Positions 7,421 through 27,517 of a stretch of 43,041 bases of DNA are shown here, piece by piece; the stretch's first letter is position 1, and every line of letters starts with the position of its first letter. The position numbers and the translations under genes are program-made. The notes under the pieces were generated by a model that made no database searches, was not told where the DNA came from, and saw nothing but the letters and a program-made list of their open reading frames with translations. The stretch comes from Fibrobacterales bacterium (GTDB lineage Bacteria; Fibrobacterota; Fibrobacteria; Fibrobacterales; JAOPTW01): contig JAOPTX010000006.1 in assembly GCA_051532055.1 (NCBI GenBank), forward strand, positions 1 to 43,041. Reading direction: 5' to 3'.

Positions 7421-8317
7421 ATGGCAGATCTTACTTTTTCGGGCCAAACAGATGAACTTATTACCGTCGACCTTCCCTCACGCATAATTTATGCAAAATG
7501 GAGAGGCAACGCTACCTCTGCAGGTGGTGTTATCACTATTGAAGTGATGACTCAATGGGTCGCGAATGGCTCTGCTATCAAAGTCACCATAAAAGACCGT
7601 GATGATGGTCAGGTAGAGGTTATTGAAGGCAAAGTGTGGAATAACCTTTTTAGAAAGGATTATGTTCCCGAGCCTAATGATACACAAGGTTTAAAATTTA
7701 CCGCTGAACTTGCTGATCATAGTCTTGAGGCTGATAGTAATATTATGCGGGTTTTTCCGACAGTTACTATAGAGAATCTTCAGTTTTTGAATGGTGAAGA
7801 TGAGGCGGTGCTAGAGTCTGTTAAGGATGGACAAGCTGTGATACTTGATGCAGAAATTACTGGGCCTCCTGACGGAACTAAATGTATTGTTACCCTGAAT
7901 GAACAGTATTCTGAAACTGATTATCGTTTGGTCTTTTCTCAAGAAGTGAAAACAGAGGCGGGGCATGTTAAAGTGCCATGGGAAGAAAAATTAAGTAAAG
8001 AGATGGATGAGATTAAAACTCATGAAACTCTTGCAAAAGATGCTGAAGATTATTTTCAGCCTAGCTACTACTTCACGGTAGAGTCGTATGGTACGACTGG
8101 AAGGTCAGAGAAAATTATATTGGTAAATGAGATGGTGTTATATTATCGTGAAGCTGAAGGGAAGGCTGGTGAATATGAAGGCAAGACTATTAAGGTTATA
8201 GCGCCTGATGGTGAAGAAGTTTCTTTAACTGTTCCAGCTGATGGTAAAGTTGTTGTAGAACAAACTAAGCCGGGCTTGTATAGTATTGATGAAAGTGGGT
8301 TAGAAGATGCCGAGTAA
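7421..8317 (+). CDS. Hypothetical acidic beta-rich protein with a C-terminal transthyretin/carboxypeptidase-regulatory-like segment; candidate secretion adaptor
   Basis: 298 aa, AAGGA SD, no signal peptide. C-terminus KTIKVIAPDGEEVSLTVPADGKVVVEQTKPGLYSI resembles TTR-like extensions of VgrG/PAAR proteins (by recall). Overlaps the next gene by 11 nt. Confidence 0.6.
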   Translation: MADLTFSGQTDELITVDLPSRIIYAKWRGNATSAGGVITIEVMTQWVANGSAIKVTIKDRDDGQVEVIEGKVWNNLFRKDYVPEPNDTQGLKFTAELADHSLEADSNIMRVFPTVTIENLQFLNGEDEAVLESVKDGQAVILDAEITGPPDGTKCIVTLNEQYSETDYRLVFSQEVKTEAGHVKVPWEEKLSKEMDEIKTHETLAKDAEDYFQPSYYFTVESYGTTGRSEKIILVNEMVLYYREAEGKAGEYEGKTIKVIAPDGEEVSLTVPADGKVVVEQTKPGLYSIDESGLEDAE

Positions 8318-11096
8318 TAAAAAGGGAGTAAAGGTTGGTGCGGATGCACAGCATGAAAAAAATCCTCCTATTGACGGTGTGATTGTATACCCATCACTTG
8401 GTTCCCCTGAAATTGTTTTTGTAGATGAGACTATTTCTGTTGTGGTGCTTCTTGATAAAGAATTGCCTTATGAAACAGATGAAGAGAAGGACACAACACA
8501 TAAACGTATATGTAAATGTTTGAGCCTGTTTTCAAAAGAACAATTACACAAGATATATGTAAATGAAAGTTTTAAGACACTGGGGCATGTTACATCAGAT
8601 ACAGTGGTAGATGTTAAGTCGTTACAGGATTCTTTTGCTGCCACGCAATCTGAAGGGTATTACCTTGTCAGTGATAGTGAGAAAAACTTTGAAGCTATGC
8701 TCAATCCTCGCGTTATTGAGTATTATATGAATGGTGAAATTGCGGGGCAGGAAACACAAAACGATCTACTACAAAGTAAGCCCTTAGCATATCCGTATCT
8801 AATAACCCTTGATGCGAAAAAAGTTTTTAAGGGCTCTAGCGCACAACTTTATTTCTATTGGAAAATGCTTGATGATAAAAGCTACACATTAAAGAATGAT
8901 CGAAGTAAAGAAGATGCATATACGAGTTGGATTTTTCGAAACCGTACATTGGATGGTGATGATAACCTTTTTATCGGGAAGAAAATTGTAGAAGATTCAG
9001 ATGGCGTTTTAAATGCGGGTATTGAAAAAGAAAAGGACTTAAGGAAAGATCAAGAAGTATTTACAACAGAGCCTTCACTCGGTGTGTACAATATTTTTGA
9101 TTTCAAATTTCAAGATAAACTTGAGTTGTTGCCATTACACCCGGTTTTTTATTACCATGAAAAAGCTCGTAAATTAAATACTGCTTTTGTAAGTGACCTT
9201 CATGTGGTTTCTCGGCTACAAGTAATGAAGCATACGGACTTGAGAGTTATACCAGGCGTCACTGATGACTCGGTGAGTCCTCCTATAGGGAAACAGATTG
9301 AACCACACGGTGAAAGTCTTCAAACTATTTTAAATGCAATTGGAAAGAGTGCCGCTGATATTTTAGTGGTGGGAGGTGATCTCGTAGATTTTGCGCAAGA
9401 TGCTTATCCTGGTCTGGAGAGTGCACTTTCAAAGGTGTCCAAAGGCAAAAAAATACCTGATTGTGGAGGTGTTGACTATAAAGAAGTATCAAAACTACTG
9501 AGTTTTACATCAGATGATAAGGATCATTATCAGCATGGCGTAGATCTGGGGATGATGTTTTTGATGTTTGCAGAATTTATGGAAAAACATAAAAAGCCGG
9601 TGTTAATACTTTCAGGGAATCATGATGCATATGAAAAGCCTTTTGGTATCTCTCCTCGTGGATTAAAAGATTATGTTGGTGATGTGAAACTTGCAAATGA
9701 AGGAATTCCTGCAGATGCTAATCTCTCTATAATGGAAGCTTGTCTGGCATATGGTGAAAATTATGGAGCGGTTGAGAAGAATTTTAATTTTACTCCTGAA
9801 ATAATGGATTTTTACTCATTTCTATTTAGCCCAGTTACAACCTATACGAGTAAAATAGGATTGTTACAAATATTGAGTTTGGACTGGATGGAAGAAGAGG
9901 ATATGATTAGTTCTGGCTCTAGCGTGATTGGATGTTTGCCAGTTGCTACAAAAAACCTCAACCAAATCGAAATGGCTCAGGTTGTAAATCCGTTTTTCAA
10001 TTACATAGAAGATAGTAGCCTTACTTCAGTCGTATTATCCCATTATACTTGGGTTTGTTATGATGCAGGGGCAAATGTTCTCCTTGATGGTGCAAAACGA
10101 AGCTTTAAAGTTGGTGATGGTGTTAACTCTACTGATTTTAATATAGGTACCTGTAAAATTAATCGTATTCCATTTTATACTAAATTTAAAGAGCAGAAAA
10201 TAGATTTTTGTTTTTCAGGGCATGCCCATAGGGCTGGCGTGTATAAATTGAAAGATTTCCAAGGTTCTGAAGTGAGTATGCTTGGCTTACCTGTTGAAAA
10301 GCAGAATAAGTTTGATTCCTTAGCCGAAAAACCACTCAAAAAGCCTGTGTTTTTAGTAGCGGATTCCGCAGGGCCCATCCCAAGAGAAAATAATGCAGGG
10401 GAATTTGGTGGGTGGGGAAGTAACTCCCCCGCTGGTTTGCTTTTAGCATTTAATGACTCTGGTAAAGGACGAAAGTTTTCTATTGAAAGAGTGTCCGCAA
10501 GAGTAAAGCCTCGATTAAGTGTCTCTATGGATTATATGGAACTCATGAAAGAGAATGATTTTGATTCAAGTTGGTGGTGGAATTTTTGGGTTGATAAGAT
10601 TAATTTAAAGATTACGGGCGGGGATACAGAAGAAGAAATCGCACCAGAAGCAAAAAAATACTCAGTTGATATTACTTTTAGTAAAGAAAATAATATCGTT
10701 AATAATTTACCCAATTGGTTTTTACTTAATTCCATAAGTTATGTAGTCTATTATAATGACAAGACAGGAAAGAAGAAAGTACAGTTGAAAGTTTTTAAGG
10801 ATGGTGACGACTGGTTTTTAGAAGATGAGGCAGGGAAATTAGGGTGGCTTATGGAAACTAATCGCGAAAAGGTGAAATCGGAGTCCTTTCTTTCGACTAG
10901 TTATAAGATAGGCAAAAATGATTTTAAGGCGGGACAGATTTATAATACAAGTTTTCCATCAGTGATGTTTGCAAGTAGTAAACTTGATAAGAAGTGGTTT
11001 AAAGATGTCTTTACTCTTGAGATTAAAAAAGAGGGAAGTTGGACTAAGTATCCTGATATCGAAAAATATGAAGAATTAAAAGCAAGACTAGTATGA
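8307..11096 (+). CDS. Large calcineurin-like metallophosphoesterase (929 aa), candidate toxin/effector
   Basis: All five MPE motifs in order: FVSDLH, GGDLVD, SGNHD, VLSHY, SGHAH. Long inserts and N/C extensions; no signal peptide. Confidence 0.85.
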   Translation: MPSNKKGVKVGADAQHEKNPPIDGVIVYPSLGSPEIVFVDETISVVVLLDKELPYETDEEKDTTHKRICKCLSLFSKEQLHKIYVNESFKTLGHVTSDTVVDVKSLQDSFAATQSEGYYLVSDSEKNFEAMLNPRVIEYYMNGEIAGQETQNDLLQSKPLAYPYLITLDAKKVFKGSSAQLYFYWKMLDDKSYTLKNDRSKEDAYTSWIFRNRTLDGDDNLFIGKKIVEDSDGVLNAGIEKEKDLRKDQEVFTTEPSLGVYNIFDFKFQDKLELLPLHPVFYYHEKARKLNTAFVSDLHVVSRLQVMKHTDLRVIPGVTDDSVSPPIGKQIEPHGESLQTILNAIGKSAADILVVGGDLVDFAQDAYPGLESALSKVSKGKKIPDCGGVDYKEVSKLLSFTSDDKDHYQHGVDLGMMFLMFAEFMEKHKKPVLILSGNHDAYEKPFGISPRGLKDYVGDVKLANEGIPADANLSIMEACLAYGENYGAVEKNFNFTPEIMDFYSFLFSPVTTYTSKIGLLQILSLDWMEEEDMISSGSSVIGCLPVATKNLNQIEMAQVVNPFFNYIEDSSLTSVVLSHYTWVCYDAGANVLLDGAKRSFKVGDGVNSTDFNIGTCKINRIPFYTKFKEQKIDFCFSGHAHRAGVYKLKDFQGSEVSMLGLPVEKQNKFDSLAEKPLKKPVFLVADSAGPIPRENNAGEFGGWGSNSPAGLLLAFNDSGKGRKFSIERVSARVKPRLSVSMDYMELMKENDFDSSWWWNFWVDKINLKITGGDTEEEIAPEAKKYSVDITFSKENNIVNNLPNWFLLNSISYVVYYNDKTGKKKVQLKVFKDGDDWFLEDEAGKLGWLMETNREKVKSESFLSTSYKIGKNDFKAGQIYNTSFPSVMFASSKLDKKWFKDVFTLEIKKEGSWTKYPDIEKYEELKARLV

Positions 11097-12373
11097 ATAT
11101 TTTTAGAGGCATATTAATATGCCTATTTTGTATAGGAGTGGTTATGGGGAAGAGTTTTGATGGCGATTTGGGAAAAGAGCTTAAAAATATTGATTCATTT
11201 AATAGCACGTTTGCCCAGGGCTATGATTTTGGTGGAAACATGATTACGGGTATATTTAAGCGGTATGAATGGCCTGATGGTAAGTATGAAGGGCTTAATT
11301 TTGTGGATGCTACATTTACAGCGATTGATTTTGATAATAAGATGAGTATCACTCATTCGGTATTTAAAAACTGTACTTTCAGTAAATGCAATTGGAGTCG
11401 CTCAACCTGGGAAAACAACACGTTTATTGGATGTACTTTCAAAGATCATACTATTGGTTTGGGTTCTGAAATTCATGAGAATGATTTTAGCGAAGTCTCT
11501 TTTAAGAATTCTGACTTTAATAATGAAGTGGGCATGGGGGGGGCAACGATAAAAGCAAATAAAAATAGATGGAAAAAATCTTCATTTGAAAATAATCATT
11601 TCAATTATTTCAAATTTGTTGATACAGAGTTTAATGAATGTGTTTTTAAAGAGAACAAATTTGAAAACTCAACTATTTATGGATTTAATGCAGTGCGTCC
11701 TTACTTTAAATCGAATAGTTATGATAAATTTGATTTGTATGATGGGGCTATAGACCACCCCTATTTAGAAGGAATTCCTTATGTTGATATCAATTATACA
11801 AAGTTTAACTTTAATCAGGTCGTAATTACTGATACTTTGACTATTGTACCGACAGAGATTGTAGGCCAACCAACCTATGGTATTGGAGGGTTTAGTTTGT
11901 CAGGAGCGACAATTGACCTTTCTAAACTAAAGGGAAATAATTTTTCGTTTACCGGTGGAGAGGATGTATCAATTGCTGACTTTAATGACCCGTCCAAAAA
12001 ACTAGTTTTAACTTCGTTATCAAATTCAACAGTTAAAAATATTAAATGTTATGCACTCGAAATAGCGGTAAGTCCAATTTCAAATGTTGTTTTTGAGAAT
12101 ATAGAGCTTGAATATGGAATAGCAATTAAATATGGCGGCTCACTTGAAAATGTAGTTTTTAGAAATGTGACTATGGGCAAGGGTGTTGTATTTGATGAAG
12201 CAAAACTAAAAAATGTTACCTGGGAAAATGTTACCTTTAAAAATGATCCAAAACGTATATGGGTGAAAAACTCGACCTTTGATACGCTTCCTCCCTTTCT
12301 TGAAGGCCGGAAGTTTACTGATACTGATGATAGTGTATTTGTTGATGGGAAACAGTTTCTAGGTGATAATTAA
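11093..12373 (+). CDS. Exported pentapeptide-repeat (beta-helix) protein, copy 1
   Basis: 5-residue periodicity (SVFKN CTFSK CNWSR STWEN NTFIG CTFKD; VVFEN, VVFRN, VTWEN), hydrophobic N-terminal leader, ATGA overlap with the MPE stop. Confidence 0.85.
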   Translation: MNIFRGILICLFCIGVVMGKSFDGDLGKELKNIDSFNSTFAQGYDFGGNMITGIFKRYEWPDGKYEGLNFVDATFTAIDFDNKMSITHSVFKNCTFSKCNWSRSTWENNTFIGCTFKDHTIGLGSEIHENDFSEVSFKNSDFNNEVGMGGATIKANKNRWKKSSFENNHFNYFKFVDTEFNECVFKENKFENSTIYGFNAVRPYFKSNSYDKFDLYDGAIDHPYLEGIPYVDINYTKFNFNQVVITDTLTIVPTEIVGQPTYGIGGFSLSGATIDLSKLKGNNFSFTGGEDVSIADFNDPSKKLVLTSLSNSTVKNIKCYALEIAVSPISNVVFENIELEYGIAIKYGGSLENVVFRNVTMGKGVVFDEAKLKNVTWENVTFKNDPKRIWVKNSTFDTLPPFLEGRKFTDTDDSVFVDGKQFLGDN

Positions 12374-13705
12374 TCGATATAGAGATTAACAGAACTTCTC
12401 AGCAGAAAATAATTAAGGTTTGTGTGAAATGAATAATTTGCAGCTGTTAGTTATGGGGTTGTGTCTCCATGGAGTATGTATGGCAAAGAATTTTGATGGT
12501 GATTTAAGTAAAGAACTCAAGAATATTGAATCATTTAATAGTACGTTTGGTCAAGGTTTTGACTTTGGTGGAAACATGATTACTGGTATATTTAAGCGGT
12601 ATGAATGGCCCGATGGTAAGTATGAAGGCCTCAAATTTGAAGGCGCCACATTTACAGCGATTGATTTTGATAATAAAATGAGTATCACTCACTCGGTATT
12701 TAAAAACTGTACCTTTAGTAAATGCAATTGGAGTCGCTCAACCTGGGAAAACAACACGTTTATTGGGTGTACTTTTAAAGGTCACGTTATTGGTATTGGC
12801 TCAGAAGTAAATGACAATGAATTTAGTAAAGTGGAGTTTAACGATTCGAAATTTTATAACGAAAATGGTATGGGTAGCCCTACGATAACTATCGAAGGGA
12901 ATAATTGGAAGGGATCAACGTTCAATAATAATGAGATAAGTTATTTTGAATTTAAAAATGAGACTTTTATAGATTGTGTTTTTAAAGGTAATAGCTTTAA
13001 AAATGCTTATATTGATACGTTTGATGCGGTGCGCCCACAGTTTGTGTCTAATAAATATGAAGAGTTTGATCTCTCTGATGGGACTATGGATCACCCCTAT
13101 TTAGAAGGGATTCCGTATGTTGACATCAATTATAAAAAGTTTAACTTTAGTCAGGTAGTAATTACAGATACCCTCACTATAGTGCCAACAGAGATTGTGG
13201 GTCAGCCGACCTATGGTATTGGAGGGTTTAGTTTGTCAGGTACGACAATTGACCTTTCTAAGCTAAAGGGGAATAACTTTTCGTTTACTGGTGGTAGCGA
13301 TGTGTTAATTTCTGACTATAATGATCCTTCTAATAGTTTAGTACTCACTTCGTTATCAAATTCAACAGTTAAAAATATTAAATGTGATGCACTCGAAATA
13401 GCGGTAAGTCCAATTTCAAATGTGGTTTTCGAGAATTTAGAACTCAAATATGGAATAGTTATGAAATATGGCGGTTCACTTGAAAATGTGGTTTTTAGAA
13501 ATGTGACTATGGGCAAGGGTGTCGTTTTTGATGAAGCTAAACTAAAAAATGTTACATGGGAGAATGTTACTCTTACAGATAACCCAAAGCATGTATGGGT
13601 GAAAAACTCGACCTTTGATACGCTTCCCCCCTTTCTTGAAGGCCGGAAGTTTACTGATACTGATGATAGTGTATTTGTTGATGGGAAACAGTTTCTAGGT
13701 GATAA
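11144..13705 (+). repeat. Tandem gene duplication (11144-12369 vs 12480-13705)
   Basis: Colinear at +1336 nt; 12258-12369 and 13594-13705 differ at 1 of 112 nt. Confidence 0.9.
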
Positions 13706-13709
13706 ATAA
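12429..13709 (+). CDS. Exported pentapeptide-repeat protein, copy 2 (tandem paralog)
   Basis: From ATG 12429 it is 426 aa like copy 1 and aligns without gaps at an offset of 1336 nt. Confidence 0.85.
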   Translation: MNNLQLLVMGLCLHGVCMAKNFDGDLSKELKNIESFNSTFGQGFDFGGNMITGIFKRYEWPDGKYEGLKFEGATFTAIDFDNKMSITHSVFKNCTFSKCNWSRSTWENNTFIGCTFKGHVIGIGSEVNDNEFSKVEFNDSKFYNENGMGSPTITIEGNNWKGSTFNNNEISYFEFKNETFIDCVFKGNSFKNAYIDTFDAVRPQFVSNKYEEFDLSDGTMDHPYLEGIPYVDINYKKFNFSQVVITDTLTIVPTEIVGQPTYGIGGFSLSGTTIDLSKLKGNNFSFTGGSDVLISDYNDPSNSLVLTSLSNSTVKNIKCDALEIAVSPISNVVFENLELKYGIVMKYGGSLENVVFRNVTMGKGVVFDEAKLKNVTWENVTLTDNPKHVWVKNSTFDTLPPFLEGRKFTDTDDSVFVDGKQFLGDK

Positions 13710-13787: not shown

Positions 13788-14831
13788 ATGGATTCCAAGT
13801 TCCTATATATATCAAATTCTACTGAAAATAATATGAATTATAGATCAATATACTACGACAACGTAAAAGCCCTTCTAATACTCTTAGTTGTAGTTGGGCA
13901 TTTCATAGAACCCTACCGTGGTGTATATTCACATTCGACTGCACTGTATGCCTTTATATATTTGTTCCACGTTCCACTGTTTGCCTATGTGTCGGGCCGC
14001 TTCTCAAAGTTTGATTATTCTACAAAGAGTGTACGAAAGGTCATAGTTTATCTGATTGTTCCATACTTTTTACTGCAATTAGGGTTTAGCGTTTTTAATA
14101 ATTGGATGTCAGGTTCGGAATTGCTTAATTTACAGATGTTTCAGCCATATTGGCATTTGTGGTACCTCTTAAGCTTAATCCTTTGGACATTTTTATTGCC
14201 TGTAGTTAAGCTTTTTCGGTGGCCATTACTGTTGGCTTTATTGTGTGGATTGTTAGTAGGTTTAAACGACTATAGTTATAACCTTTCTTTTTCGCGAACG
14301 TTTGTATTTTTTCCCTTTTTTATTCTTGGCCACATGGATGTGATCGATAGAATTCGTCAGAAACGAATTGTTTGGATTCGAATTCTCGCGGGGATTATTT
14401 TAGTAGGTGCGTTTATAGTGCTCCTAAAAATGGATCTAAAGACCTTTAATTATTATTGGTTCTATGGGTCTGTTCCTTATTCATTAATGAGTGCAAACTG
14501 GCATGAAGGTATGCTGTATAGATTATATACTTATTCAGCATCTCTTCTGCTCTTGATTTCTTTTCTGATTATAATACCTGAGCGGAAAAACATATTCACT
14601 AATTTAGGTACTAAAACTTTTGTAGTATATGTATTGCATGCTATAGTTGTGAAGGTGTTTCAAAAATACGTAGATCTCTATCTGTTTGTCGATCCATGGT
14701 ATATCTGTACACTGCCAGTGATTGCTCTGGCAACTATAGTGATTCTTGCCCTGCCAGGTCTAAATACATTCTTGGACTTGTTTTTGTTGAAGAGAATTAC
14801 GCCCTACTTCTTAGGGAATAAAAAAGAGTAA
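13788..14831 (+). CDS. Acyltransferase family 3 membrane protein (polysaccharide O-acetyltransferase-like)
   Basis: RSIYYDNVKALLILLVVVGH, IYLFHVPLFAYVSG, HLWYL, SRTFVFFPFF, VYVLH; about 10 TM helices. True start may be 13833. Confidence 0.88.
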   Translation: MDSKFLYISNSTENNMNYRSIYYDNVKALLILLVVVGHFIEPYRGVYSHSTALYAFIYLFHVPLFAYVSGRFSKFDYSTKSVRKVIVYLIVPYFLLQLGFSVFNNWMSGSELLNLQMFQPYWHLWYLLSLILWTFLLPVVKLFRWPLLLALLCGLLVGLNDYSYNLSFSRTFVFFPFFILGHMDVIDRIRQKRIVWIRILAGIILVGAFIVLLKMDLKTFNYYWFYGSVPYSLMSANWHEGMLYRLYTYSASLLLLISFLIIIPERKNIFTNLGTKTFVVYVLHAIVVKVFQKYVDLYLFVDPWYICTLPVIALATIVILALPGLNTFLDLFLLKRITPYFLGNKKE

Positions 14832-14887
14832 TAAGAGTGGCTCTGCTTGTGTATGCACTATACAACCTTGTACTAAAATCCCTCCAA

Positions 14888-14963: not shown

Positions 14964-17372
14964 ATGAAACTTATTACTGGGGTAGTGGTTTTACTATTTG
15001 TTCTCACCGGTTGCTTTAATGCAGGGGTGAATGATACTAATCAAGAAATGGCAGAAAGTGATGATTCGAGCGTCGTGAGAGTAAACCTAGATATTTTACT
15101 TGGTCAACATCGCTTTGATAGCATTCGTTATGAGGTTGTTCCAGGTGAGAGTGATAGTTTTGATGGGTCTCTTGAGGTCGATTCAGATGATGCACAAACT
15201 ACAGTCGTCCTTGATATCCCTAGGGGTGAGAAAAGTACTATTACCTACTATTGTTATATTGGTGATGATATAGCGGCAGGGAATAATGAAGTTATTCAAG
15301 CAATTGTTGAAACAACTATAACCTCATCGCCGGATTATGTCCCGGTAGTTATAAATAATGTTTCTGAGTATCGCATAACCGTTGATGAAACATTTCAGTT
15401 TGATATTGATGTCGATGACATTTCTCCTTCATTAACCTATGAGTATGATTTCGTTGGGGATGGTGTTTTTACTACTGCTAATCGACATATTTATCGCGCT
15501 AAAGGAACTTATAGTGCCGTTATTAGAGTAGGCGATGGTATTAATGTTGTTGTCGTGCCTCTAGAGGTGATAGTGTTGGAGCGTACAGGAAATCCAGACT
15601 TTAAACCGATTGAGAAAGAATCTGATGTGTATACCATTGATTATGTAAGTACTCAAGGTGGGAGTGTTAGTGGAAGTGCTACGAGCATTGCTGGGGGCGA
15701 AGTTACGGTCAAGTTTGTTGAAAGTCCTGGATATCAATTTGATACATTTGTATTAGATTCAGGGAAGGCGAATCTTGAGGGTAACTTATTGACTGAAATT
15801 AAATCTGATGTAATGGTCACGGCTCAATTTACTTCAAAAAAATATGACATCATTTTCGAGATTGAGGGTGATTGTGGGAGCGTAACAACGGAAGATGCTC
15901 TTCAATATGCTATTAATGTAGATGATATAACAATCGGAACAACATTGGATAATAATTGTAATGTTTATTTCTCTTCTGAACATTTGAATGTGCTTGATAG
16001 CACGATAAATGGAATTTCACCAGAAGGGCTCGCTATTGTGAATGATTCACTTGTGGTGACCGTTACTTTTACCGAAAAAGTACTCGAGCAAGTGCGTGTA
16101 TCCGTGGAGTGTTACCTTGATGGAGAACGTCAGTCGAGCTGTGATGAAGTGTTTGGTTCGGTAGAGCCCTCGTTGTTCACCTTGTCAGAAGACAATACTC
16201 AGAAGTTATTAATGCCGATCTCTCAGAATGGATATCAATTTATTGAATTTACAGCTGAGTCAACTATTCAAATGAAGGGTGATACGGTCATTTTTAAAGA
16301 AGGGCCTACAGATGGTTTGGTAAATGCTTATTTCAAAACAACAGAGTTTGAGGTTTCACTTACCTCGGGTGCTCATGGTACAATAAGCCCATCAACAATT
16401 ACTACGAGTATTGATATTGAAGAAACAGTTACGGTCAATGCTTCAGCTGATTTAGGGTATGTCTTTGATGGTTGGGAAGTCTTCAATTGTACTATTGCTG
16501 ATGGTTTTGATGAGCGGAGTGATGAAGTACGTTTTAGTTGTATCGATACGGGGGTGATTCAAGCTCGTTTCATAGGGCTGCCACCAAATAGTATCAGTAT
16601 TAATAATGGGCCTGGGAAAATGGTGCTTGGGGCTGCAAACATAACCCTTGATGTTACAATATTGCCCAATAGTACCCCTAATAAACAAGTACTATGGAGT
16701 TCAAGTAATAGTGATATTGTGCGCGTTGCGAATGGGGTGCTCGAAGCGGTATCAGGAGGGAATGTAGATATTACGGCAACAACAGCTGATGGAAATCGAA
16801 CTCAGTCTATTTCAGTCGCAGTAGACTCACTTCTCGATACTCGGATCGATACTTCTGGTGTCCAAAAGAAATATAAAATTGTTCGTATTAACGATGTGGT
16901 ATGGATGGCAGAAAACCTTGACTATAGAAAAAAAGGCGGTTGTGCTGGGATGGGTGAAAGTCGTTGTGATGAATATGGTAGCTATTATCGCTATGATTCC
17001 CTGGCTACTGCGTGTCCTGCGGGCTGGATTGTACCAAGTAAATCAGACTGGGAAAGCCTCGAACAGTATATTGATGCTGATAATGGCGGGGTGAATGATA
17101 ATGCTGGATATTCTCTTAAAGCCTTTAAGACGGGCTGGACAGATCCCTATGCAGGGAACCGATATGGCTTTAGTGCGCTTCCCAGTGGGTTTGGTAAATA
17201 TACTGGTGCTCCAAGTTCAGGGGGTGCCTATTGGTGGAGTTCTACCTATCATTCGGAGCATGCCATATTTAAAATTCCAAATTATTGGACTGCCTCAATT
17301 ACCAGTGATGCTCTTACTGTTGGCTATAATGTTTCAGGTGATTCAGTGCCACTCAGATGTATTCAGGATTAG
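14964..17372 (+). CDS. Surface lipoprotein with PKD-like, InlB-B-repeat-like and Big_2 domains and a C-terminal FISUMP (Fib_succ_major) domain
   Basis: Lipobox LTGC; GYQFD/GYVFDGW repeats; VLWSSSNSDIVRV (Big_2); YKIVRI...WMAENLDY, CDEYGSYY, ACPAGWIVPSKSDW, GFSALPSG, AYWWSS, PLRCIQD. Confidence 0.85.
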   Translation: MKLITGVVVLLFVLTGCFNAGVNDTNQEMAESDDSSVVRVNLDILLGQHRFDSIRYEVVPGESDSFDGSLEVDSDDAQTTVVLDIPRGEKSTITYYCYIGDDIAAGNNEVIQAIVETTITSSPDYVPVVINNVSEYRITVDETFQFDIDVDDISPSLTYEYDFVGDGVFTTANRHIYRAKGTYSAVIRVGDGINVVVVPLEVIVLERTGNPDFKPIEKESDVYTIDYVSTQGGSVSGSATSIAGGEVTVKFVESPGYQFDTFVLDSGKANLEGNLLTEIKSDVMVTAQFTSKKYDIIFEIEGDCGSVTTEDALQYAINVDDITIGTTLDNNCNVYFSSEHLNVLDSTINGISPEGLAIVNDSLVVTVTFTEKVLEQVRVSVECYLDGERQSSCDEVFGSVEPSLFTLSEDNTQKLLMPISQNGYQFIEFTAESTIQMKGDTVIFKEGPTDGLVNAYFKTTEFEVSLTSGAHGTISPSTITTSIDIEETVTVNASADLGYVFDGWEVFNCTIADGFDERSDEVRFSCIDTGVIQARFIGLPPNSISINNGPGKMVLGAANITLDVTILPNSTPNKQVLWSSSNSDIVRVANGVLEAVSGGNVDITATTADGNRTQSISVAVDSLLDTRIDTSGVQKKYKIVRINDVVWMAENLDYRKKGGCAGMGESRCDEYGSYYRYDSLATACPAGWIVPSKSDWESLEQYIDADNGGVNDNAGYSLKAFKTGWTDPYAGNRYGFSALPSGFGKYTGAPSSGGAYWWSSTYHSEHAIFKIPNYWTASITSDALTVGYNVSGDSVPLRCIQD

Positions 17373-17441: not shown

Positions 17442-19097
17442 CTAGTTAATGTAGAATACAATCTTTTGAGTTTCAGCTTCATTACCTGACATATCAACCA
17501 ACCCTTCAACCAATAGAGTGTCGATTATCGATGATAAAGAGTCTGGAATAGTTGCATCAGTATTAGGGGGAAGAGCTACGGTGATATAGAGGTCGTTACT
17601 ATAACTTCCAATCCATTCATAGCTCAATTCAAAAACATCGTGATTCATTAAGCTCAATAGGATAGTGGCCGTTGTATCAACGTCAGCTGTTGATCGATAC
17701 GAGCGGGTTTGAAGTGTGTCGGTAGTAACGCTATCACTATGGTCGAGATTGTAGTTATAGAGGTTGAAGCCACTGCTCGTACTGAGAGTCGGGCCAACAA
17801 CATCACTTAATGTTATAGTCTGCGCCTCTGAGAATTCTGATTGTTTAGTGTCAGTATATCCAACAACCATGAATTCATTTGTAGTGGCATCTTCAAAGCT
17901 TACATTTGAAACGGTTGCAGCAGTATCATTGATAACGCTACGATACGAGACGAGAGTAAAATTGTCTTCAAGGCTGCTTTTTTTATAGATGTCATATCCT
18001 GTTACGCCAGCAATACTATTCCATGTAAGTTCAATGTCATCAGTATAGTAGTCAACAAGAGTATCAGAGCCATTATAAGCCATTAATCCTGTTACATTTC
18101 CTGGTGTTGTGAGGTTTTCAACTTTAAAGTTAAGCGATGTACTCAGTGAACGACCATAGATGCTCGAAAGATTGAGGTTGAGAGTATAGGTTCCTACTTC
18201 GCCCCAGTTTCCTTGGATTGCATACACATATATCGAACGGTTATCTTCAGAAAATGAGTAGTCTGCAGCAATAGTAGCACTTCCCGATGAAACTGTAATG
18301 TGATTACGTTTGATCTTGGTGATGTCGATAATATCTGAGAAATTTACTGAGATGGTGTCGTTTGCTTTGATGTCTGAGTTATAGCTGTCGACAGACAAGC
18401 TATTTGCTTCAATCGAGAGTGTGACAGGAAGTACTTTTACTGATTCGTTAGGCTTAAGGTTGCTCTGCGGTGCAGGGGTAGCAGCAGCGTATTTGAATTC
18501 ACCAATTTCTAGAGTACGTGTAGATATTTCATAGGTCTCTACGCGCTCTGGAAGGTTGGTAAAGGTATAAATACCATTTGTGTCAGTTGTAGTAGAGTAA
18601 TACTTCTCTCTGAAATCACTGCTTTCAGGAAGTTGTAAATCAACAGTAACACCGTTTGCAAGTGCTTTGTTCGCGTCAATGTCTGTGATTTTTACAACAC
18701 CAGAAATAGTTGCAGTAAGGGTATGGAGGTAACAAGTCTTATCGACGTCAGGAAGGACAGGGATTTCTGCATCGCCAAGTGAACTGAGTCCATCGATAGT
18801 GATCTCCATTGCTGCATAACTCGCTTTCTCAAGAGTGAGGGCATAGGTGCCACGAGGAAGGTCTGCAATAGTCATACTTCCGAGTGAATCGGTGTAGGCA
18901 GAGGTTTGTACGCCATCGATATACCATGAGACTTTGGCTGAGTCAATAGGTGTGTTAGTACCAATCTCTTTGACGATAAGGTCAATAGAACCGGTAGTTT
19001 TTGATGATTCATATCCTTGCATAGCGACTTGATCGCCACAGGCAAGAATGAGGAAAGTGGCAACGATAAGTGCCATGAGTGAAGAAAGCTGTTTCAT
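17442..19097 (-). CDS. Surface lipoprotein with carboxypeptidase-regulatory-like, Big_5-like and FN3-like domains (short paralog)
   Basis: Start MKQLSS with AGGAG SD, lipobox ILAC; TDSLG..LPRGTY, TDTNGIYTFTNLP, ELTWNSIAGVTGYDIY, GLVDMSGN. Confidence 0.75.
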   Translation of the reverse strand: MKQLSSLMALIVATFLILACGDQVAMQGYESSKTTGSIDLIVKEIGTNTPIDSAKVSWYIDGVQTSAYTDSLGSMTIADLPRGTYALTLEKASYAAMEITIDGLSSLGDAEIPVLPDVDKTCYLHTLTATISGVVKITDIDANKALANGVTVDLQLPESSDFREKYYSTTTDTNGIYTFTNLPERVETYEISTRTLEIGEFKYAAATPAPQSNLKPNESVKVLPVTLSIEANSLSVDSYNSDIKANDTISVNFSDIIDITKIKRNHITVSSGSATIAADYSFSEDNRSIYVYAIQGNWGEVGTYTLNLNLSSIYGRSLSTSLNFKVENLTTPGNVTGLMAYNGSDTLVDYYTDDIELTWNSIAGVTGYDIYKKSSLEDNFTLVSYRSVINDTAATVSNVSFEDATTNEFMVVGYTDTKQSEFSEAQTITLSDVVGPTLSTSSGFNLYNYNLDHSDSVTTDTLQTRSYRSTADVDTTATILLSLMNHDVFELSYEWIGSYSNDLYITVALPPNTDATIPDSLSSIIDTLLVEGLVDMSGNEAETQKIVFYIN

Positions 19098-19167
19098 GTG
19101 AGCTCCTGTAAAAGTGTTGTTTAAATTTTTGTTTTTAGTTGTATAAGTCATATTTCAATCTCCTAGT

Positions 19168-22053
19168 TTACGAGCCTATTGATAGTGGCACGACAATTGA
19201 ATCTGAAGTATTTCCAGCGAAATCTATGAGGCCCTTAATTACAAGAGTGTCTTGTGTGATAAGATGTGCATCAGCTCCTGCTTCAACGACATAATCCAAA
19301 AGTATTCGATTTGTCGAATAAGGGGAAACATTTACAGAGAGTAAACCAGGGTTTGACTTCAAATAAGCGGTTGTAAGGGCGTTATTCATATCGTTTGAGT
19401 GTGTTAAGTATTGTGAAAATGCTATGGCCTCTGGGTTTCCTGTGTTGTTAATTCGTGCACCTGATATACTAGAAGATATAGTAGTACTTATTGCTGGAGC
19501 GATTGTGTCTTTTAAAATAAGAGTTGGCGCTCTGTCAAGAGAAGACTCTTCTCCTTTATAAGTAGTCGTAACTTTGACTTCTGTGATTTTCTGATCGGTA
19601 AAATCATAACATGAACTTTCGATTTCAAAATAACCAGATTCGATTGTGATATCTGTACATAGAGCAAATGAACTAGAGGGACTTACTTTTGTGTAAAAGT
19701 TGTAGCTCGTTACTGATGGGATTTCGTTCACGTAAATTCTAACATCCGGTACATTTGCTGCGATATCTGTTGACGTCCAGATAGAATCGAGGTCCAGCCC
19801 TGTAAAACTCACCGGTATAGAATGTGCTAAAATTGAACTATTGCCTGAAGCATCAGTGAGTCCCGTCAGTGAAACTACATCACTAGTAATAGCAGATGCA
19901 TTTTGGCCTGCTTTAATACTTACTGATACGCGAAGTCTATAGGCGCTGTACCATTCGGTAGTGACGCTTAATATTGCGGGGTTATTTGTTACGACGACAG
20001 TTGGAGTAGTAGTTGTATCTATATCATTTGAGACAGACAACAGAATTGAGCCAACGAGTGTATCATTCGAAGATCCATTAATGAGGCTACCAATAACAGG
20101 TATTGGACTATTGCTCGACGTTACTCGAGGTGCAACCGTATCTCGCAAAACCAATTCAGGAGTATTGTCTATTCCAGAGAGTTGACCATCCATTTCACTT
20201 AATATTTTAAATGAGTATGAACCACCATTGCGGAAATCAAGATCATAATTGTAGGAGTCATAATAGCTGCTTCTTGAGGTAAGATATTGGTACGTTGAAT
20301 CAAGAGGTGTTTTAACCCATATTTGATATGCATCTACAACAGGTACTTCACTCCACTCGAGTCGCACTGTTTGGTCGTGATCGATAACCGATCCAGAATA
20401 GGTATAAAGCGTATCAACACTAATGTCATTAAACTCAATTTTTTTAACTTGAAGTTCAGGGAGTGCGTTGCCCGCTAAGTCAGTCAAGCCAAAGAGTGTA
20501 AGCGTGTCCTCAGCAAGGAGCGATGCATCTTTTCCAGCGGGAATATCGAGAGAAACGATAAGGTACTTATTACTCGACCATTCGAAAGAAGGAACAAAGA
20601 TATCGCCATTTCTCAATACGTTGAGGCTAGGAGTCTTTGTTGTATCAATATCACCCGAAATGTAAATACTTTCTGTCAAAACATTTTTTGCAGTATCTGC
20701 AGTGCTGTTGTTGAGGTCAGTATAGATTACAAGTGGAATGGTATCAATTTTAGGTGCGATAACATCTTTTACACTAAAAATGGGAGCTTCTTCAAAAGTT
20801 GATGTACCATTTGATGTGTAGCTCACAATCATAAATTGATTTGACTTACCTTCGCTCAACTCGAGTGAGAGAGAGGCCATTGTGTCGAGTTCGCCAGAAA
20901 TTGTGTTCACCTTGCTAAAAAGACTGTCGTGACTTGTTTTAGCATAAATATCGTAACCCGCTGCATTAGGCACGTGGTCCCAAGTTGCTTGCAGGTACCG
21001 AGTGTCATAGTCTACAGAATCAATCAATGTATCAGGAGTAAAGCCAATAACCGTTGCGGGCTGAGCTATATCTGCTACAGTAAACAGCACTGATGTGTTA
21101 ATTGAGCCACCATCGATACTTTCAAGTGAAACACGAAGAGTGTAGTTTCCTGTTTCGCCCCAAGTGCCTTGGGTTGGTGTAATAGTCAGTTGCTTTGTTC
21201 CTACCGTGAATAGGTAGTTTATCGCTATAGCTGTACCTTGGCCAGAAACAGTGATATCCCCTCTATTGATGCGAGTTGTATCGATATCTTGAGAGAAGAC
21301 AATTGCTACAGACTCTGTAGAATAAATCTCTTTGGGTGCAATGTCAATGGTTACGTTAGGGATAGCTACAGGTAAAACTGCTGGTGGTATTGAAACTGAT
21401 TCGGCAGATTTTAGATTGTATTGCCTAGGGAGTTCCAGGGAGGCGTATTCGATGGCTCCTTTTTCGAAATTACGAGTAGTGAGGTTGTAGCGTTCGATTC
21501 CTTCAGGAATATCAGTAAAGGAATAGACCCCAAATGAGTCGGTAACCGTTTCAAAGTTCTTGGTTACGATGCCATTGGTTCCAGTGAGCTCTAAGTCGAC
21601 TGTTATTCCAGGTGTAGGAGTCTTATTTCCTTCGTGATCCTCCATCTTGAGAATACCACTAATTGTTGCACTATTTTTATGCATCAATATCATTGCGTCG
21701 TAGTCTCCGAGAATAGGCATTCTGTTTGAGCCAGTCGAAGTGAGGTTGATATCATCGCGGTACATGGCGGCATAGCCAGCTTTCTCGATGTTGATTGCAT
21801 AAATACCTCGAGGGAGGTCGCTAATAGTAATGTGTCCAAGTGAATCAGACCATTCAATGTAGGTTATATCATCAACAACCCAGGTGACTTTGGCTGAGTC
21901 TATGCTGGTGCGTGTGGTGAAATCTTTGAGGGTAAGATCCACCGAACCCGTTGTTTTTGATTCAGTAAACTCCTGCGAAATTGTAGAGTCGGTACAAGAG
22001 AGAGTACCGGCAATAAAACAAAAAAGCAAGAGCAACAGTGAGATAATTCTCAT
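19168..22053 (-). CDS. Surface lipoprotein, long paralog with three tandem FN3-like plus Ig-like units
   Basis: Lipobox LSC, AGGAG SD. N-half is colinear with the 17442 gene (ESKTTGS.DL..K...IDSAKV.W). Three units end GLTDLAGN, GLTDASGN, GLIDFAGN. Confidence 0.75.
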   Translation of the reverse strand: MRIISLLLLLFCFIAGTLSCTDSTISQEFTESKTTGSVDLTLKDFTTRTSIDSAKVTWVVDDITYIEWSDSLGHITISDLPRGIYAINIEKAGYAAMYRDDINLTSTGSNRMPILGDYDAMILMHKNSATISGILKMEDHEGNKTPTPGITVDLELTGTNGIVTKNFETVTDSFGVYSFTDIPEGIERYNLTTRNFEKGAIEYASLELPRQYNLKSAESVSIPPAVLPVAIPNVTIDIAPKEIYSTESVAIVFSQDIDTTRINRGDITVSGQGTAIAINYLFTVGTKQLTITPTQGTWGETGNYTLRVSLESIDGGSINTSVLFTVADIAQPATVIGFTPDTLIDSVDYDTRYLQATWDHVPNAAGYDIYAKTSHDSLFSKVNTISGELDTMASLSLELSEGKSNQFMIVSYTSNGTSTFEEAPIFSVKDVIAPKIDTIPLVIYTDLNNSTADTAKNVLTESIYISGDIDTTKTPSLNVLRNGDIFVPSFEWSSNKYLIVSLDIPAGKDASLLAEDTLTLFGLTDLAGNALPELQVKKIEFNDISVDTLYTYSGSVIDHDQTVRLEWSEVPVVDAYQIWVKTPLDSTYQYLTSRSSYYDSYNYDLDFRNGGSYSFKILSEMDGQLSGIDNTPELVLRDTVAPRVTSSNSPIPVIGSLINGSSNDTLVGSILLSVSNDIDTTTTPTVVVTNNPAILSVTTEWYSAYRLRVSVSIKAGQNASAITSDVVSLTGLTDASGNSSILAHSIPVSFTGLDLDSIWTSTDIAANVPDVRIYVNEIPSVTSYNFYTKVSPSSSFALCTDITIESGYFEIESSCYDFTDQKITEVKVTTTYKGEESSLDRAPTLILKDTIAPAISTTISSSISGARINNTGNPEAIAFSQYLTHSNDMNNALTTAYLKSNPGLLSVNVSPYSTNRILLDYVVEAGADAHLITQDTLVIKGLIDFAGNTSDSIVVPLSIGS

Positions 22054-24637: not shown

Positions 24638-27517
24638 ATGGGTATTTTTGATTTAGTAAAACCAAAGTGGCAGCACAGCGATCCAAACGTTAGAATTAGA
24701 GAGATTAAGAACCTTGGAGAAAACAATCAACCGATTATTGATTCGATTGCGCAACGTGATAAAAATGCAGATGTACGCCGCATTGCAATAAAAAAAGTAA
24801 ATAGTTTGGATGTGCTTATTGCAATATCCCAATGTGATACTGAGAATGATCTTCGCCAAATTGCGAAACAACGATTTTCTGAAAGTGTAAATAAAGAACT
24901 TAAGAAAGAAAGTATAGATGTTGCTGCTCTTGAACTATTCAACAAGCTTGAAGACGTTAAATATATAGAAGACGCACTCCAATCAGCTGCAAGCGATGAA
25001 GTACGTTTGGCTGCAGTCGCTAAAGTTGATAAAGAGACAGTGCTTGCGAAAGTGGCTAAGGACGACACTGTTGAAGCGGTTGCTCTTGCTGCTGCCGAGA
25101 AAGTTGCGCGTGTTAATTTGTTAGAAGAGATTCAAAAATATTCACGTCATTCAAAGGTGAGAAGTCTCGTCTCCAAAAAAATATCGAAAATTGAATCGAA
25201 TGATAAAGCTGAGTCACACAATAAGTTTGAGTCGAGAAAACGTGATGTGCTCCTTAAAACATTGACTGATATAGCGGGTTCAGTAAATATCCACGAGCGT
25301 ATTACTGAAGTAGAGAGTATGTATGCCGAAGGAAAAAAGTTAATAACTGAAACAACTCAAGAGTTTACCAGTAAGTTGGAAAAGAGTGTTTCAGAAATTA
25401 AACAAAAAATTTCTGATGCTGAAGCGTCAATTAGAGCAACGCAAGAAGAGCAACAACGTAATTCTGCAATCGCAGAAGAATGTAAGGGTGCGTGTGAAGC
25501 ACTCGAAGAATTACTCAATCTTGGGACTGATGCAATTGCGAGTGAAAAGCTCGATACTCAAAAAAATGCATGGAGTGCTTTGGGCGATAAGTACGGTGAC
25601 ACTGCAGTCTATGTTGAATATACGAACCGTTTTAATAAAACATTACAACGTATAAGCAATATGGTTCAAGAGGTTGAAGAAGAAAAACTAGGTGCTGAGA
25701 AAAAATTAGAGCGTCGTAATGACCTTATAGCGCAACTAGGTTTCTTAAAAGAAGCGGTGGGATCAAAAACTTTTCACAAACAGATTCAATCTATTGATAG
25801 TAGGTGGAAAGCTTTGGGTGAAGCAACTGAAGCTGAGAAAGATCTCGAGAATCAGTATTTCGCTCTAAGAAAAGAGTTAGAGGCAGAGTCTGATAAAAGC
25901 TATGAGGCGCATCGCGAAGTAGTTAAAGAGCGACTTTCTAAGCTTGAAACTATCTGTGTTGATGTTGAAGCACTTGATGAAGATGGTGATTTTACTAAAA
26001 TCATACAGACTCTCCGTGAAAAACAAAATGCTTGGAAAGAGATTGTAGGTGATGATAAATCGCAATTTCAAAAAATATATACTCGATTTCAACAAGCCCT
26101 CGCTCGTTTTAATGAGATGCGTGAGTGGGAACTATGGCATAATGAAAAAGAGAAAAATAAACTCATCGAAGAAGCCCAAACATTAGGCACTATAGAAGAT
26201 GATAAAGAACTCTTTAAAACAATAAATAGTCTGAAACAAAAATGGCGAGGCATAGGTCATGTACCTGCGGCACTTGTTGAAGAGATCTGGCAGCGTTTTA
26301 ATGGGGCTCTTGAGCCGCATATGGAACGGTGTACTGAGTATTTAAAACAACAAGAAGCTGAGTTCGAAGAGAACTATAAAATTAAGCAGCGTATTGTTGA
26401 GTCTATAAAAAGTGCTGTTGCGACCGTTGAAAACTGGAAAGAACAGTCTGATGTGGTTAAAAAATTACAAGAAGAGTGGAAGAATACTGGTTTTGTTGCA
26501 AAAGATAAAGTTAAAGAGCTCCAAGAGCTGTATCGGAAATCATGTGATACTTTTTACGAGAAAAAACGTGAGTTTTTAAAGTCTGAAGATGATAGAAGAT
26601 TGCTCAATCTTGAACAAAAGACTGTACTTTGTGAAGAAGCTGAGGCAATTAAAGACTCTGACCAATGGAAAGAGACCACAGAAAAACTTAAGTCTCTTCA
26701 AACTGATTGGAAAAATATCGGCCCTGTTCCTAAAGAGCACTCTGATCCAATCTGGGCTCGCTTTAGAAAAGCGTGTGATGGCTTTTTCGAGAATAAACGC
26801 ACTCACTATGAGAAAATTGAAGAGGGTCGTGTAGAGAATCTTCAAAAGAAAGTAGCACTCTGTGAGCGTCTTGAAAATGAGAATTTAGATCCTTCAAGTG
26901 AGCAGGATAGAGAGTCTTTTGAGGCAATTCGCAAAGAGTGGGAAACGGTAGGTCATGTACCTAAAGATGATTCAGATGCAGTATTTGAACGATTTATTAA
27001 AAACTGTGATGAATACCTTGAACGTCAGATGGAAGTTGATCCAGAGGTGAAAGCTGATGTAGAGACCAAAAAAGTACGAAAACGTGCCCTTATTAATAAA
27101 GCACAAGAGTTATCTGAATCTTCTGATTGGAAAGAGACTTCTGAACAGTTGAAAGAGCTTCAGACTGAGTGGCGCAAAATTGGCCGTGTTGGCACTGAAG
27201 ATCCAGAGCTTTGGAAAGAGTTTCGAGTACACTGCGACGAGTTCTTTACCCGCAAACGTGATACGTATGAAATTCTTCAACAGAATAGAATCAATAATTT
27301 AGAAGGTAAGTTAACTCTTTGTGAGCAGGCTGAACGCCTTGCAGAGCGTGAATATGATGAAGAAATTGTTCGCGAAGCAAAACTTCTTCGTGATCGCTGG
27401 AAAGAGATTGGTGCGGTTCCCCGGAAAGATTCAGACAATATCTGGAAACGATTCAATGCTGCATGCGATAAAGTATTTGAAAAGAGAAAACTCGCACGAG
27501 AAACCGAAGAAGCGTGA
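24638..27517 (+). CDS. DUF349 domain-containing protein with N-terminal HEAT-like repeats
   Basis: KPKWQHSDPNVR start; repeated LQ.EWK.IG.VP.....IW.RF...CD.FF units; coiled-coil rich; GGAG SD. Confidence 0.88.
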   Translation: MGIFDLVKPKWQHSDPNVRIREIKNLGENNQPIIDSIAQRDKNADVRRIAIKKVNSLDVLIAISQCDTENDLRQIAKQRFSESVNKELKKESIDVAALELFNKLEDVKYIEDALQSAASDEVRLAAVAKVDKETVLAKVAKDDTVEAVALAAAEKVARVNLLEEIQKYSRHSKVRSLVSKKISKIESNDKAESHNKFESRKRDVLLKTLTDIAGSVNIHERITEVESMYAEGKKLITETTQEFTSKLEKSVSEIKQKISDAEASIRATQEEQQRNSAIAEECKGACEALEELLNLGTDAIASEKLDTQKNAWSALGDKYGDTAVYVEYTNRFNKTLQRISNMVQEVEEEKLGAEKKLERRNDLIAQLGFLKEAVGSKTFHKQIQSIDSRWKALGEATEAEKDLENQYFALRKELEAESDKSYEAHREVVKERLSKLETICVDVEALDEDGDFTKIIQTLREKQNAWKEIVGDDKSQFQKIYTRFQQALARFNEMREWELWHNEKEKNKLIEEAQTLGTIEDDKELFKTINSLKQKWRGIGHVPAALVEEIWQRFNGALEPHMERCTEYLKQQEAEFEENYKIKQRIVESIKSAVATVENWKEQSDVVKKLQEEWKNTGFVAKDKVKELQELYRKSCDTFYEKKREFLKSEDDRRLLNLEQKTVLCEEAEAIKDSDQWKETTEKLKSLQTDWKNIGPVPKEHSDPIWARFRKACDGFFENKRTHYEKIEEGRVENLQKKVALCERLENENLDPSSEQDRESFEAIRKEWETVGHVPKDDSDAVFERFIKNCDEYLERQMEVDPEVKADVETKKVRKRALINKAQELSESSDWKETSEQLKELQTEWRKIGRVGTEDPELWKEFRVHCDEFFTRKRDTYEILQQNRINNLEGKLTLCEQAERLAEREYDEEIVREAKLLRDRWKEIGAVPRKDSDNIWKRFNAACDKVFEKRKLARETEEA

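Follow-up and report, generated by a model that had tools for sequence, protein, structure and literature searches.

What is the function of the four co-oriented genes at positions 7421-13709 of a 43,041-nucleotide stretch of DNA (the window) from a Fibrobacterales bacterium (contig JAOPTX010000006.1, assembly GCA_051532055.1)? On the + strand they encode a 298-aa protein, ORF1 (7421-8317); a 929-aa calcineurin-like metallophosphoesterase (8307-11096); and two pentapeptide-repeat proteins, paralog 1 (426 aa, 11093-12373) and paralog 2 (12420-13709; 429 aa when counted from TTG, with the better spaced ATG at 12429, relative to a Shine-Dalgarno-like site, as the likely start rather than TTG 12420). 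The co-orientation and the 11-nt and ATGA overlaps described in a first-pass annotation, made by a model from the letters alone, are present in the sequence. The module is likely to be an orphan effector-immunity unit of a type VI secretion system (T6SS), with ORF1 as the putative adaptor or co-effector, the enzyme as the putative effector and paralog 1, by its Pfam family and the ATGA coupling, as the putative cognate immunity protein; secretion, toxicity and binding are what we infer.

The enzyme matches Pfam Metallophos (E 6.8e-07), and its catalytic domain (residues ~286-747) has the DxH, GD, GNH(D/E), H and GHxH motifs and the fold of the calcineurin-like metallophosphoesterase superfamily. 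Each of the motif residues D297, H299, D358, N438, H439, H579, H639 and H641 is kept by 171-178 of 179 homologs, the other sequences having a gap there, and Y442, N464, D470, R642 and N695 are also near-invariant. Metal ligands, Pfam match and fold together bear out the intact catalytic centre claimed in the first-pass annotation. The structure model (pLDDT 77.5, pTM 0.86) is closest to Rv0805 (Z 18.0, rmsd 3.5, 247 aligned residues) and GpdQ (Z 16.8, rmsd 3.4, 239 aligned), followed by Lmo2642, purple acid phosphatases, Mre11, PhoD and SMPDL3 (Z 12-16.6, 9-18% identity). Foldseek ranked SMPDL3 and acid sphingomyelinase at the top, the ESM Atlas placed the protein in generic metallophosphoesterase clusters, and SbcD was the sole match of the enzyme profile in a PDB sequence search (E 0.53). 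The fold and ligand set are those of Rv0805, GpdQ, SMPDL3 and Mre11 (DxH, GD, GNH, H and GHxH; Z 12-18); unlike these proteins, the enzyme is enlarged by sizeable insertions and by additional beta domains at both termini, and it has near-invariant residues of its own and a toxin-type gene context. The modelled fold and the motifs show an intact binuclear phosphoesterase and do not tell its substrate. Purple acid phosphatases have a tyrosine ligand in a GDxxY motif; this ligand is missing here, with D at position 361 in 173 of the 179 homologs and E in another 3, and membership of that class was rejected. In LpxH an Arg replaces the His of the GN(H/R)D motif; H439 is kept in 178 of the 179 homologs, and this class was rejected as well. 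No Rad50/SbcC-type partner was found in the recurring neighbour clusters, no search having been aimed at one, and the Mre11/SbcD fold matches reach Z 12-15.

As the first-pass annotation stated, the enzyme has no signal peptide: it contains no hydrophobic segment (best 19-residue hydropathy 1.55), and the threshold is reached by 4 of 155 full-length homologs, in none of them as a leader-like segment, the absence of a Sec or Tat signal in the family being judged from hydropathy only. The family comprises 336 representatives (E ≤0.001, among 50%-clusters) and crosses phyla, with members in Fibrobacterota, Myxococcota, Pseudomonadota, Acidobacteriota, Planctomycetota and others. In 19 of the 179 homologs the N terminus is extended by 120 aa or more, and 7 of 30 long homologs scanned have OmpA, PG_binding_1, LysM or M23 matches. 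Seven extensions resemble the N-terminal module of proteins that lie beside PAAR or VgrG, or elsewhere in related loci; for several of them these proteins stand behind PAAR or VgrG in L004, L009 and L023. Since such extensions are shared with PAAR- and VgrG-adjacent proteins, we infer that the enzyme behaves as the C-terminal toxin part of polymorphic proteins. A search for long protein forms of 1,879-5,000 aa gave none, which is weak evidence.

A T6SS-secreted, non-toxic phosphate-scavenging enzyme of the PhoD or purple-acid-phosphatase kind, with the beta-helix protein as an accessory, would agree with the alignment of the N-terminal and catalytic domains to purple acid phosphatases and PhoD (270-335 residues, Z 14-16.6). 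This explanation is given little credence, since unrelated enzyme-lipoprotein pairs can take the module's place downstream of the adaptor gene (see below), the partners form arrays, the presence of the module is patchy, and no phosphate-uptake genes occur in the recurring neighbour clusters.

Both window paralogs match Pfam Pentapeptide_4 (E ~1e-13); they are 79% identical, their differences being densest in the leader and near codons 120-210. Among 65 loci related to the module, a related pentapeptide gene lies adjacent to the enzyme gene and co-oriented with it in 49 (37 downstream, 12 upstream). It is missing from the adjacent position in 16 loci, 5 of which are cut by a contig end, so that 49 of 60 uncut loci are paired. 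The training set of the partner HMM included 26 of the 65 loci; Pfam, which is independent of this HMM, found pentapeptide repeats in 29 of 30 tested partners. FastTree trees built for 33 enzyme-partner pairs, with long branches flagged, are congruent (Mantel rho 0.84, a value reached in 0 of 2,000 permutations), and the agreement includes cross-phylum sisters such as Desulfatitalea with Cytophagia. The conserved pairing expected earlier is thus seen in adjacency and trees alike, which show the enzyme and partner genes to be co-inherited. Tandem partner copies occur in the window and in L043, L055, L063 and L048, the last with a partner array and an orphan enzyme fragment; the second copy may serve as a diversified spare against variant toxins. 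A complex prediction for enzyme residues 200-765 with mature paralog 1 gave a score of 0.00, which counts neither way.

The partners differ in the compartment to which they appear to be directed. Paralog 1 has a hydrophobic leader of 17-19 residues, the leaders of both paralogs being judged by hydropathy and inspection only. For 50 of 52 near-full partner genes a Met could be aligned to the point at which the conserved body begins; 32 of the 50 carry a hydrophobic leader above threshold, inspection assigned Tat-like or lipoprotein leaders to another 4, and 14 are leaderless. An in-frame internal ATG in paralog 1 (11144, preceded by a Shine-Dalgarno-like site at 11134-11138; 11134-11146, + strand) aligns with the start Met of the leaderless homologs and is the predicted start of a cytoplasmic isoform. 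Paralog 2 has a comparable site (12471-12474) and ATG (12480; 12471-12482, + strand). When the 15 bases upstream of the internal ATG were paired with the anti-Shine-Dalgarno motif (threshold -5 kcal/mol), the duplex energies were -6.8 kcal/mol for paralog 1 and -5.9 kcal/mol for paralog 2. Energies of -5 kcal/mol or below were found at the internal starts of 25 of 32 leader-bearing partners versus 59 of 262 internal control ATGs, and the observed mean of -6.2 compares with -4.2 ± 0.34 after synonymous recoding (0 of 300 resamplings). The site is stronger than its own recoded mean in 29 of 32 partners, or 21 of 23 after thinning of close relatives; single partner genes are mostly not significant against recoding (paralog 2, p 0.46). 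Each partner gene is therefore predicted to be translated from two starts, the first giving an exported form and the internal one a cytoplasmic form, and by sequence the leaderless cytoplasmic form is the constant form of the partner and export an add-on. That the partners are exported, as the first-pass annotation claimed, holds for the leaders of 36 of the 50 homologs and fails for the 14 leaderless ones, with a cytoplasmic isoform predicted in addition. Its further claim, that exported immunity marks action in the periplasm only, did not stand, as leaderless homologs exist and leader-bearing ones keep the internal Shine-Dalgarno-like site and ATG, which makes purely periplasmic action unlikely.

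Dual forms of immunity proteins have precedents. Exported and cytosolic forms from one gene were shown for Tli of E. cloacae (PMC11470151), dual forms through an alternative start were proposed for the X-Tfis of Xanthomonas (PMC6536674), and dual-form immunity was tied to lipid-attacking or dual-compartment effectors (PMC11470151, PMC6536674). As in Tle/Tli and X-Tfe/X-Tfi, the immunity gene here carries a signal sequence and a downstream alternative start, the latter by prediction; unlike in those systems, the toxin is a calcineurin-like metallophosphoesterase rather than a GxSxG lipase or PLD, and the partner a pentapeptide beta-helix. Protection seems to be required in every case in the cytoplasm and in many cases in the envelope as well, so that the most likely substrate is one accessible from either side of the inner membrane. 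Granted a toxin, our judgement leans to a phosphodiester or pyrophosphate of a phospholipid or lipid carrier, with somewhat less than even confidence; nucleotides or cofactors are distinctly less likely, and a nucleic acid is doubtful, as is, to the same degree, some other substrate. Nucleotide and nucleic-acid targets are kept in play by Rv0805 as the best fold match and by the loci with a leaderless partner only.

These targets belong to another explanation, in which a T6SS toxin acts in the cytoplasm alone, on nucleotides, cofactors or DNA, the partner is an inhibitor of the DNA-mimic type, and the exported form intercepts the toxin in transit. The cyclic-nucleotide phosphodiesterase Rv0805 as top fold, the Mre11/SbcD matches, the leaderless partners and the DNA mimicry of Qnr/MfpA-type pentapeptide proteins agree with it. 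A leader is borne by 36 of the 50 partners, and 33 enzyme-partner pairs show no uniform charge pattern, with pI values of 4.9-9.2 for the enzymes and 4.3-8.2 for the partners instead of basic enzymes facing acidic partners throughout. On charge, DNA mimicry by the partner is poorly supported and has low weight, and cytoplasm-only action is regarded as unlikely, if well worth keeping in view. Some of the most acidic partners do accompany the enzymes of highest basicity, those of L009, L034, L035 and L051, four closely related loci that make no independent test.

The position of the partner bears on its role. An upstream partner, found in 12 loci, is leaderless where the start could be placed (10 of 12). 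In some Deltaproteobacteria-labelled loci with the partner upstream (L010, L011, L013, L025, L031) an unrelated exported protein follows the enzyme, and in L052 and L057 such a protein is the only partner. An upstream partner with a downstream exported protein fits two-compartment protection or a chaperone role of the cytoplasmic form. In its full form the latter explanation takes the cytoplasmic pentapeptide protein mainly as a loading chaperone or activator of a T6SS effector, with immunity coming from the exported form or from another gene; it accords with these loci, and there are precedents in cytosolic Tli, which activates Tle (PMC11470151), and in the pentapeptide repeats of the T6SS assembly factor TagAB (PMC13584744). 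Tandem diversified copies and export leaders typify immunity genes, however, and a leaderless copy is the sole evident partner in L023, L028, L044, L046 and L067; we consider a mainly chaperone role quite improbable. Downstream of the enzyme in L031 (11905-21457), L011, L052 and L057 lies a tandem array of ~405-aa exported proteins without a Pfam family, likely a second immunity family; the L031 array also holds an enzyme fragment.

Known pentapeptide-repeat families were compared as well. The TagAB/DUF2169-pentapeptide proteins are described as DUF2169-fused T6SS assembly factors (PMC13584744, PMC7714669) and share with the present partners the occurrence of pentapeptide repeats in T6SS loci. 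Unlike TagAB, the partners often bear leaders and track one enzyme family; identity with this family was rejected, no DUF2169 being found in the two paralogs or 30 homologs. Qnr and Hailong HalA were also rejected, with NCBIfam scores of 39.6 against a cut-off of 240 bits and 40.5 against 250 bits, for paralog 1 only.

ORF1 is modelled as three beta-sandwich domains (residues ~17-113, 114-235 and 236-292), almost all beta (pLDDT 89.3), with a constant N-terminal domain and a variable C-terminal part. It has no Pfam match at E 0.01 (DUF4123, DUF2169 and DcrB included) and no NCBIfam match. By hhalign its profile matches the C-terminal extension of the PAAR protein encoded in this genome (95.3%, E 2.4e-08); it also matches PAAR extensions in other loci, and its last domain matches two VgrG C-termini. 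In L006 (8225-9811, - strand), a locus with three ORF1-family genes, an ORF1-family protein is fused to an SLT lytic transglycosylase domain. Foldseek returned complement/macroglobulin Ig-like domains only, a PDB sequence search with the ORF1 profile gave short Ig-like pieces only, and the ESM Atlas placed ORF1 in unnamed and SpaA-like clusters. In other loci its place is taken by DUF4123 (L043, L062 and L064), a PG-binding protein or another small family.

A same-genus genome (G001) has three ORF1 paralogs. Domains 1, 2 and 3 of ORF1 are 97, 49 and 35% identical to those of the syntenic ortholog there, nucleotide identity is 88-93% over nt 1-360 and only 42-59% beyond nt 450, and the blastn block stops at 7881 and restarts at 14860; the approximate breakpoint lies at 7780-7881 (+ strand). 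Behind the ORF1 ortholog the syntenic site holds an unrelated 914-aa protein (weak Amidohydro_2, E 0.003) and a lipoprotein-like partner. The enzyme-partner module of that genome is at a different site, the flanks of which adjoin without the module on contig C65 of the window's genome. From this one genome pair, the alignments are those of a cassette swap behind ORF1 at the syntenic site. Together with the adjacent, often duplicated partner, the swap supports the adaptor-effector-immunity layout proposed in the first-pass annotation. The constant N-terminal domain of ORF1 would engage the VgrG/PAAR spike and the variable C-terminal domains would hold the effector encoded behind it, ORF1 thus acting as a modular adaptor, or co-effector, that loads the enzyme. 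The 914-aa amidohydrolase-like protein, its lipoprotein-like partner and a partner fragment (L082, 8236-12423; G001:C4) form a second effector-immunity candidate. Behind the third ORF1 paralog, near transposase-like genes, is a 1,624-aa LysM protein with hydrophobic C-terminal segments (L083, 8437-13311; G001:C96). With these two proteins in one relative, the ORF1 family points to further effectors.

In V. cholerae, DUF4123 (Tap-1/Tec) chimeric adaptors reportedly (Unterweger, 2015) have constant N-terminal and effector-matched C-terminal halves, with the breakpoint within the adaptor gene. ORF1 is similar in having its breakpoint inside the gene and different effectors downstream; unlike those adaptors it is all-beta, three-domain and related to PAAR extensions, without the DUF4123, DUF2169 or DcrB match. 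BtpeA of B. fragilis is said (Li et al., 2025) to be a T6SS phosphatase effector. It is PAAR-fused, unlike the present enzyme, and no BtpeA chain is among the listed enzyme matches; if BtpeA shares the enzyme's fold, the catalytic novelty shrinks and that of the pentapeptide partner and adaptor remains. The last domain of ORF1 shares the size and distribution of the FIX marker domain, to which it is likened by description only, and presumably resembles it in motif. FIX is ~80 aa long and occurs in PAAR- and VgrG-fused effectors (PMC6688995). The BtpeA-BtaeB-BtapC set of the Bacteroides fragilis T6SS is mentioned in PMC13699834 and PMC13402684. The structures that score highest against ORF1 include N-terminal domains of BtaeB (9jdh, Z 11.5, rmsd 14.6, 194 aligned; 9jg8_C, Z 11.4, rmsd 2.9, 108 aligned); these tie with alpha-2-macroglobulin domains (Z 11.4), indicating tandem Ig-like folds only.

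Contractile delivery, proposed in the first-pass annotation, is consistent with a genome search, which found a T6SS on contig C1 (~37-63 kb) of the window's genome. TssA, TssB, TssC, Hcp, TssE, TssF, TssG, ClpV and VgrG exceed the NCBIfam cut-offs, TssL and TssM are strong and under cut-off, a PAAR protein and two DUF2169 genes are present, and a 450-aa TssK-like ORF was recognized by inspection only. In the 65 related loci, many of them short, neighbours within 10 kb were scored with HMMs built from Pfam-labelled neighbours: VgrG was found in 17, PAAR in 12, DcrB in 10, DUF4123 in 4 and TssC in 4. At least one marker, TssC counted, is present in 26 loci, in keeping with the neighbours foreseen for the enzyme's homologs, and L062 and L064 have the order VgrG-DUF4123-enzyme. 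Of the 61 host genomes, counted once each after four loci from repeated genomes had been set aside, 53 encode TssC, as VipB in 47 and as the Bacteroidota-type TssC in 6. The closest named relatives are Fibrobacterales/Fibrobacteria, which places the host, by inference, in that lineage. When 40 related genomes were compared, the enzyme, ORF1 and VipB were all present in the same-genus genome and all absent from the other 39, which are of the same order; related genomes are not independent, so that this co-occurrence of enzyme and VipB is a pattern and not a statistic.

The C1 cluster (G000:C1, ~32,700-63,100; L072, L073) is of T6SS subtype i, with its two DUF2169 genes and a long-extension PAAR protein, behind which lie a LysM protein and, as a likely effector, a 1,179-aa protein that belongs to no known family. 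Six genes of the same genome (G000) share an OmpA/PG-binding-type N-terminal module, which in other organisms is fused to the phosphoesterase: C32:96933-100682, C74:2690-4183, C3:236198-237769, C27:19131-21647, C37:90062-93229 and C49:27668-29338. Their C-termini are variable and several are followed by small exported proteins; they are probably a further polymorphic effector class. In L020 (12492-14642) a neighbour two genes behind the enzyme combines PG_binding_1 with Pfam Anthrax_toxA (adenylate-cyclase type).

Several points weigh against the effector-immunity reading. A Pfam scan of 31 window proteins found no secretion machinery within the window, as had been noted before, 39 of the 65 loci have no T6SS marker within 10 kb, and most neighbour HMMs derive from the same loci that they scored. 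No TssC match was found in 8 of the 61 genomes, the completeness of which is not given; 4 of the 8 have a VgrG-type OB domain over cut-off. An adjacent pentapeptide gene is missing in 11 of the 60 uncut loci, shared inheritance alone could yield congruent trees, and the upstream, leaderless position of the partner suits a chaperone too. The fold matches, at their low identity, spread over phosphodiesterases, purple acid phosphatases, Mre11 and SMPDL3 and do not fix the substrate, and the support comes from sequence and models, not from experiment. An ordinary metabolic or anti-phage operon, without any tie to secretion, would be in line with the window's lack of a secretion gene and with the partner's weak match to Hailong HalA; PADLOC matched none of the four module proteins, the family has a strong T6SS linkage, and such an operon is held to be extremely improbable. 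In L036 (1472-15882), from a Leptospirales genome without a TssC match, the enzyme lies between tail-fibre-like genes (Peptidase_S74, Peptidase_G2) with a baseplate OB domain close by, an arrangement that hints at an extracellular contractile injection system or a phage tail as the delivery device.

As an effector-immunity unit, the module would inject the enzyme, of the Rv0805/GpdQ-like branch, into rival bacteria and intoxicate them, and the pentapeptide beta-helix proteins would block it in the producer's cytoplasm and envelope. To our knowledge, the function of pentapeptide-repeat proteins is mostly unknown outside Qnr/MfpA. If the reading is true, a calcineurin-like enzyme joins the T6SS toxin repertoire and pentapeptide-repeat proteins gain a role as toxin inhibitors, in a family that goes with both T6SS subtype i and the Bacteroidota-type TssC. 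The cultured carriers Formivibrio citricus DSM 6150 (L043), Variovorax sp. OK212 and Enhygromyxa salina make it directly testable. The pairing, unfamiliar to the first-pass annotation, was not found described in the literature searched, which covered few subscription papers; the family could be listed in the supplementary files of Zhang 2012 or the FIX paper, which lay outside it. The main text of Zhang 2012 (PMC3482391; first 300,000 of 357,715 characters, supplements excluded) has no mention of calcineurin or pentapeptide, and PMC7714669 with five supplements none of metallophosphoesterase; PMC12419801 and PMC13035841 had no bearing on the question. The architecture is of a known kind, and that literature yielded no description of the toxin domain, of the immunity family or of the adaptor family.

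The module lies, as noted before, between unrelated flanks: by Pfam, a branched-chain/urea-type ABC transporter and a porin-like gene upstream and an acyltransferase_3 gene (13788-14831, + strand) downstream. The latter falls in the gap of the alignment to G001, in the variable stretch, has no homolog among 841 ORFs called in the 65 related loci, and is probably a passenger outside the module. The AT-richness remarked on earlier is real (GC 0.362 versus a genome mean of 0.396) and modest, ORF1 itself having 0.405; a GC as low as the module's occurs in 4.6% of 1,522 same-size genome windows. Promoter and terminator scans gave chance-level results. Next to the variable site are two exported, carboxypeptidase-regulatory-like paralogs and a Fib_succ_major protein (17442-22053 and 14964-17372); they share only 66-80% identity with their syntenic orthologs, versus 85-99% for the upstream genes. 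Further along the window, a 959-aa protein with eight DUF349 repeats (24638-27517) is encoded ahead of a TonB-dependent receptor-ExbBD-TonB operon.

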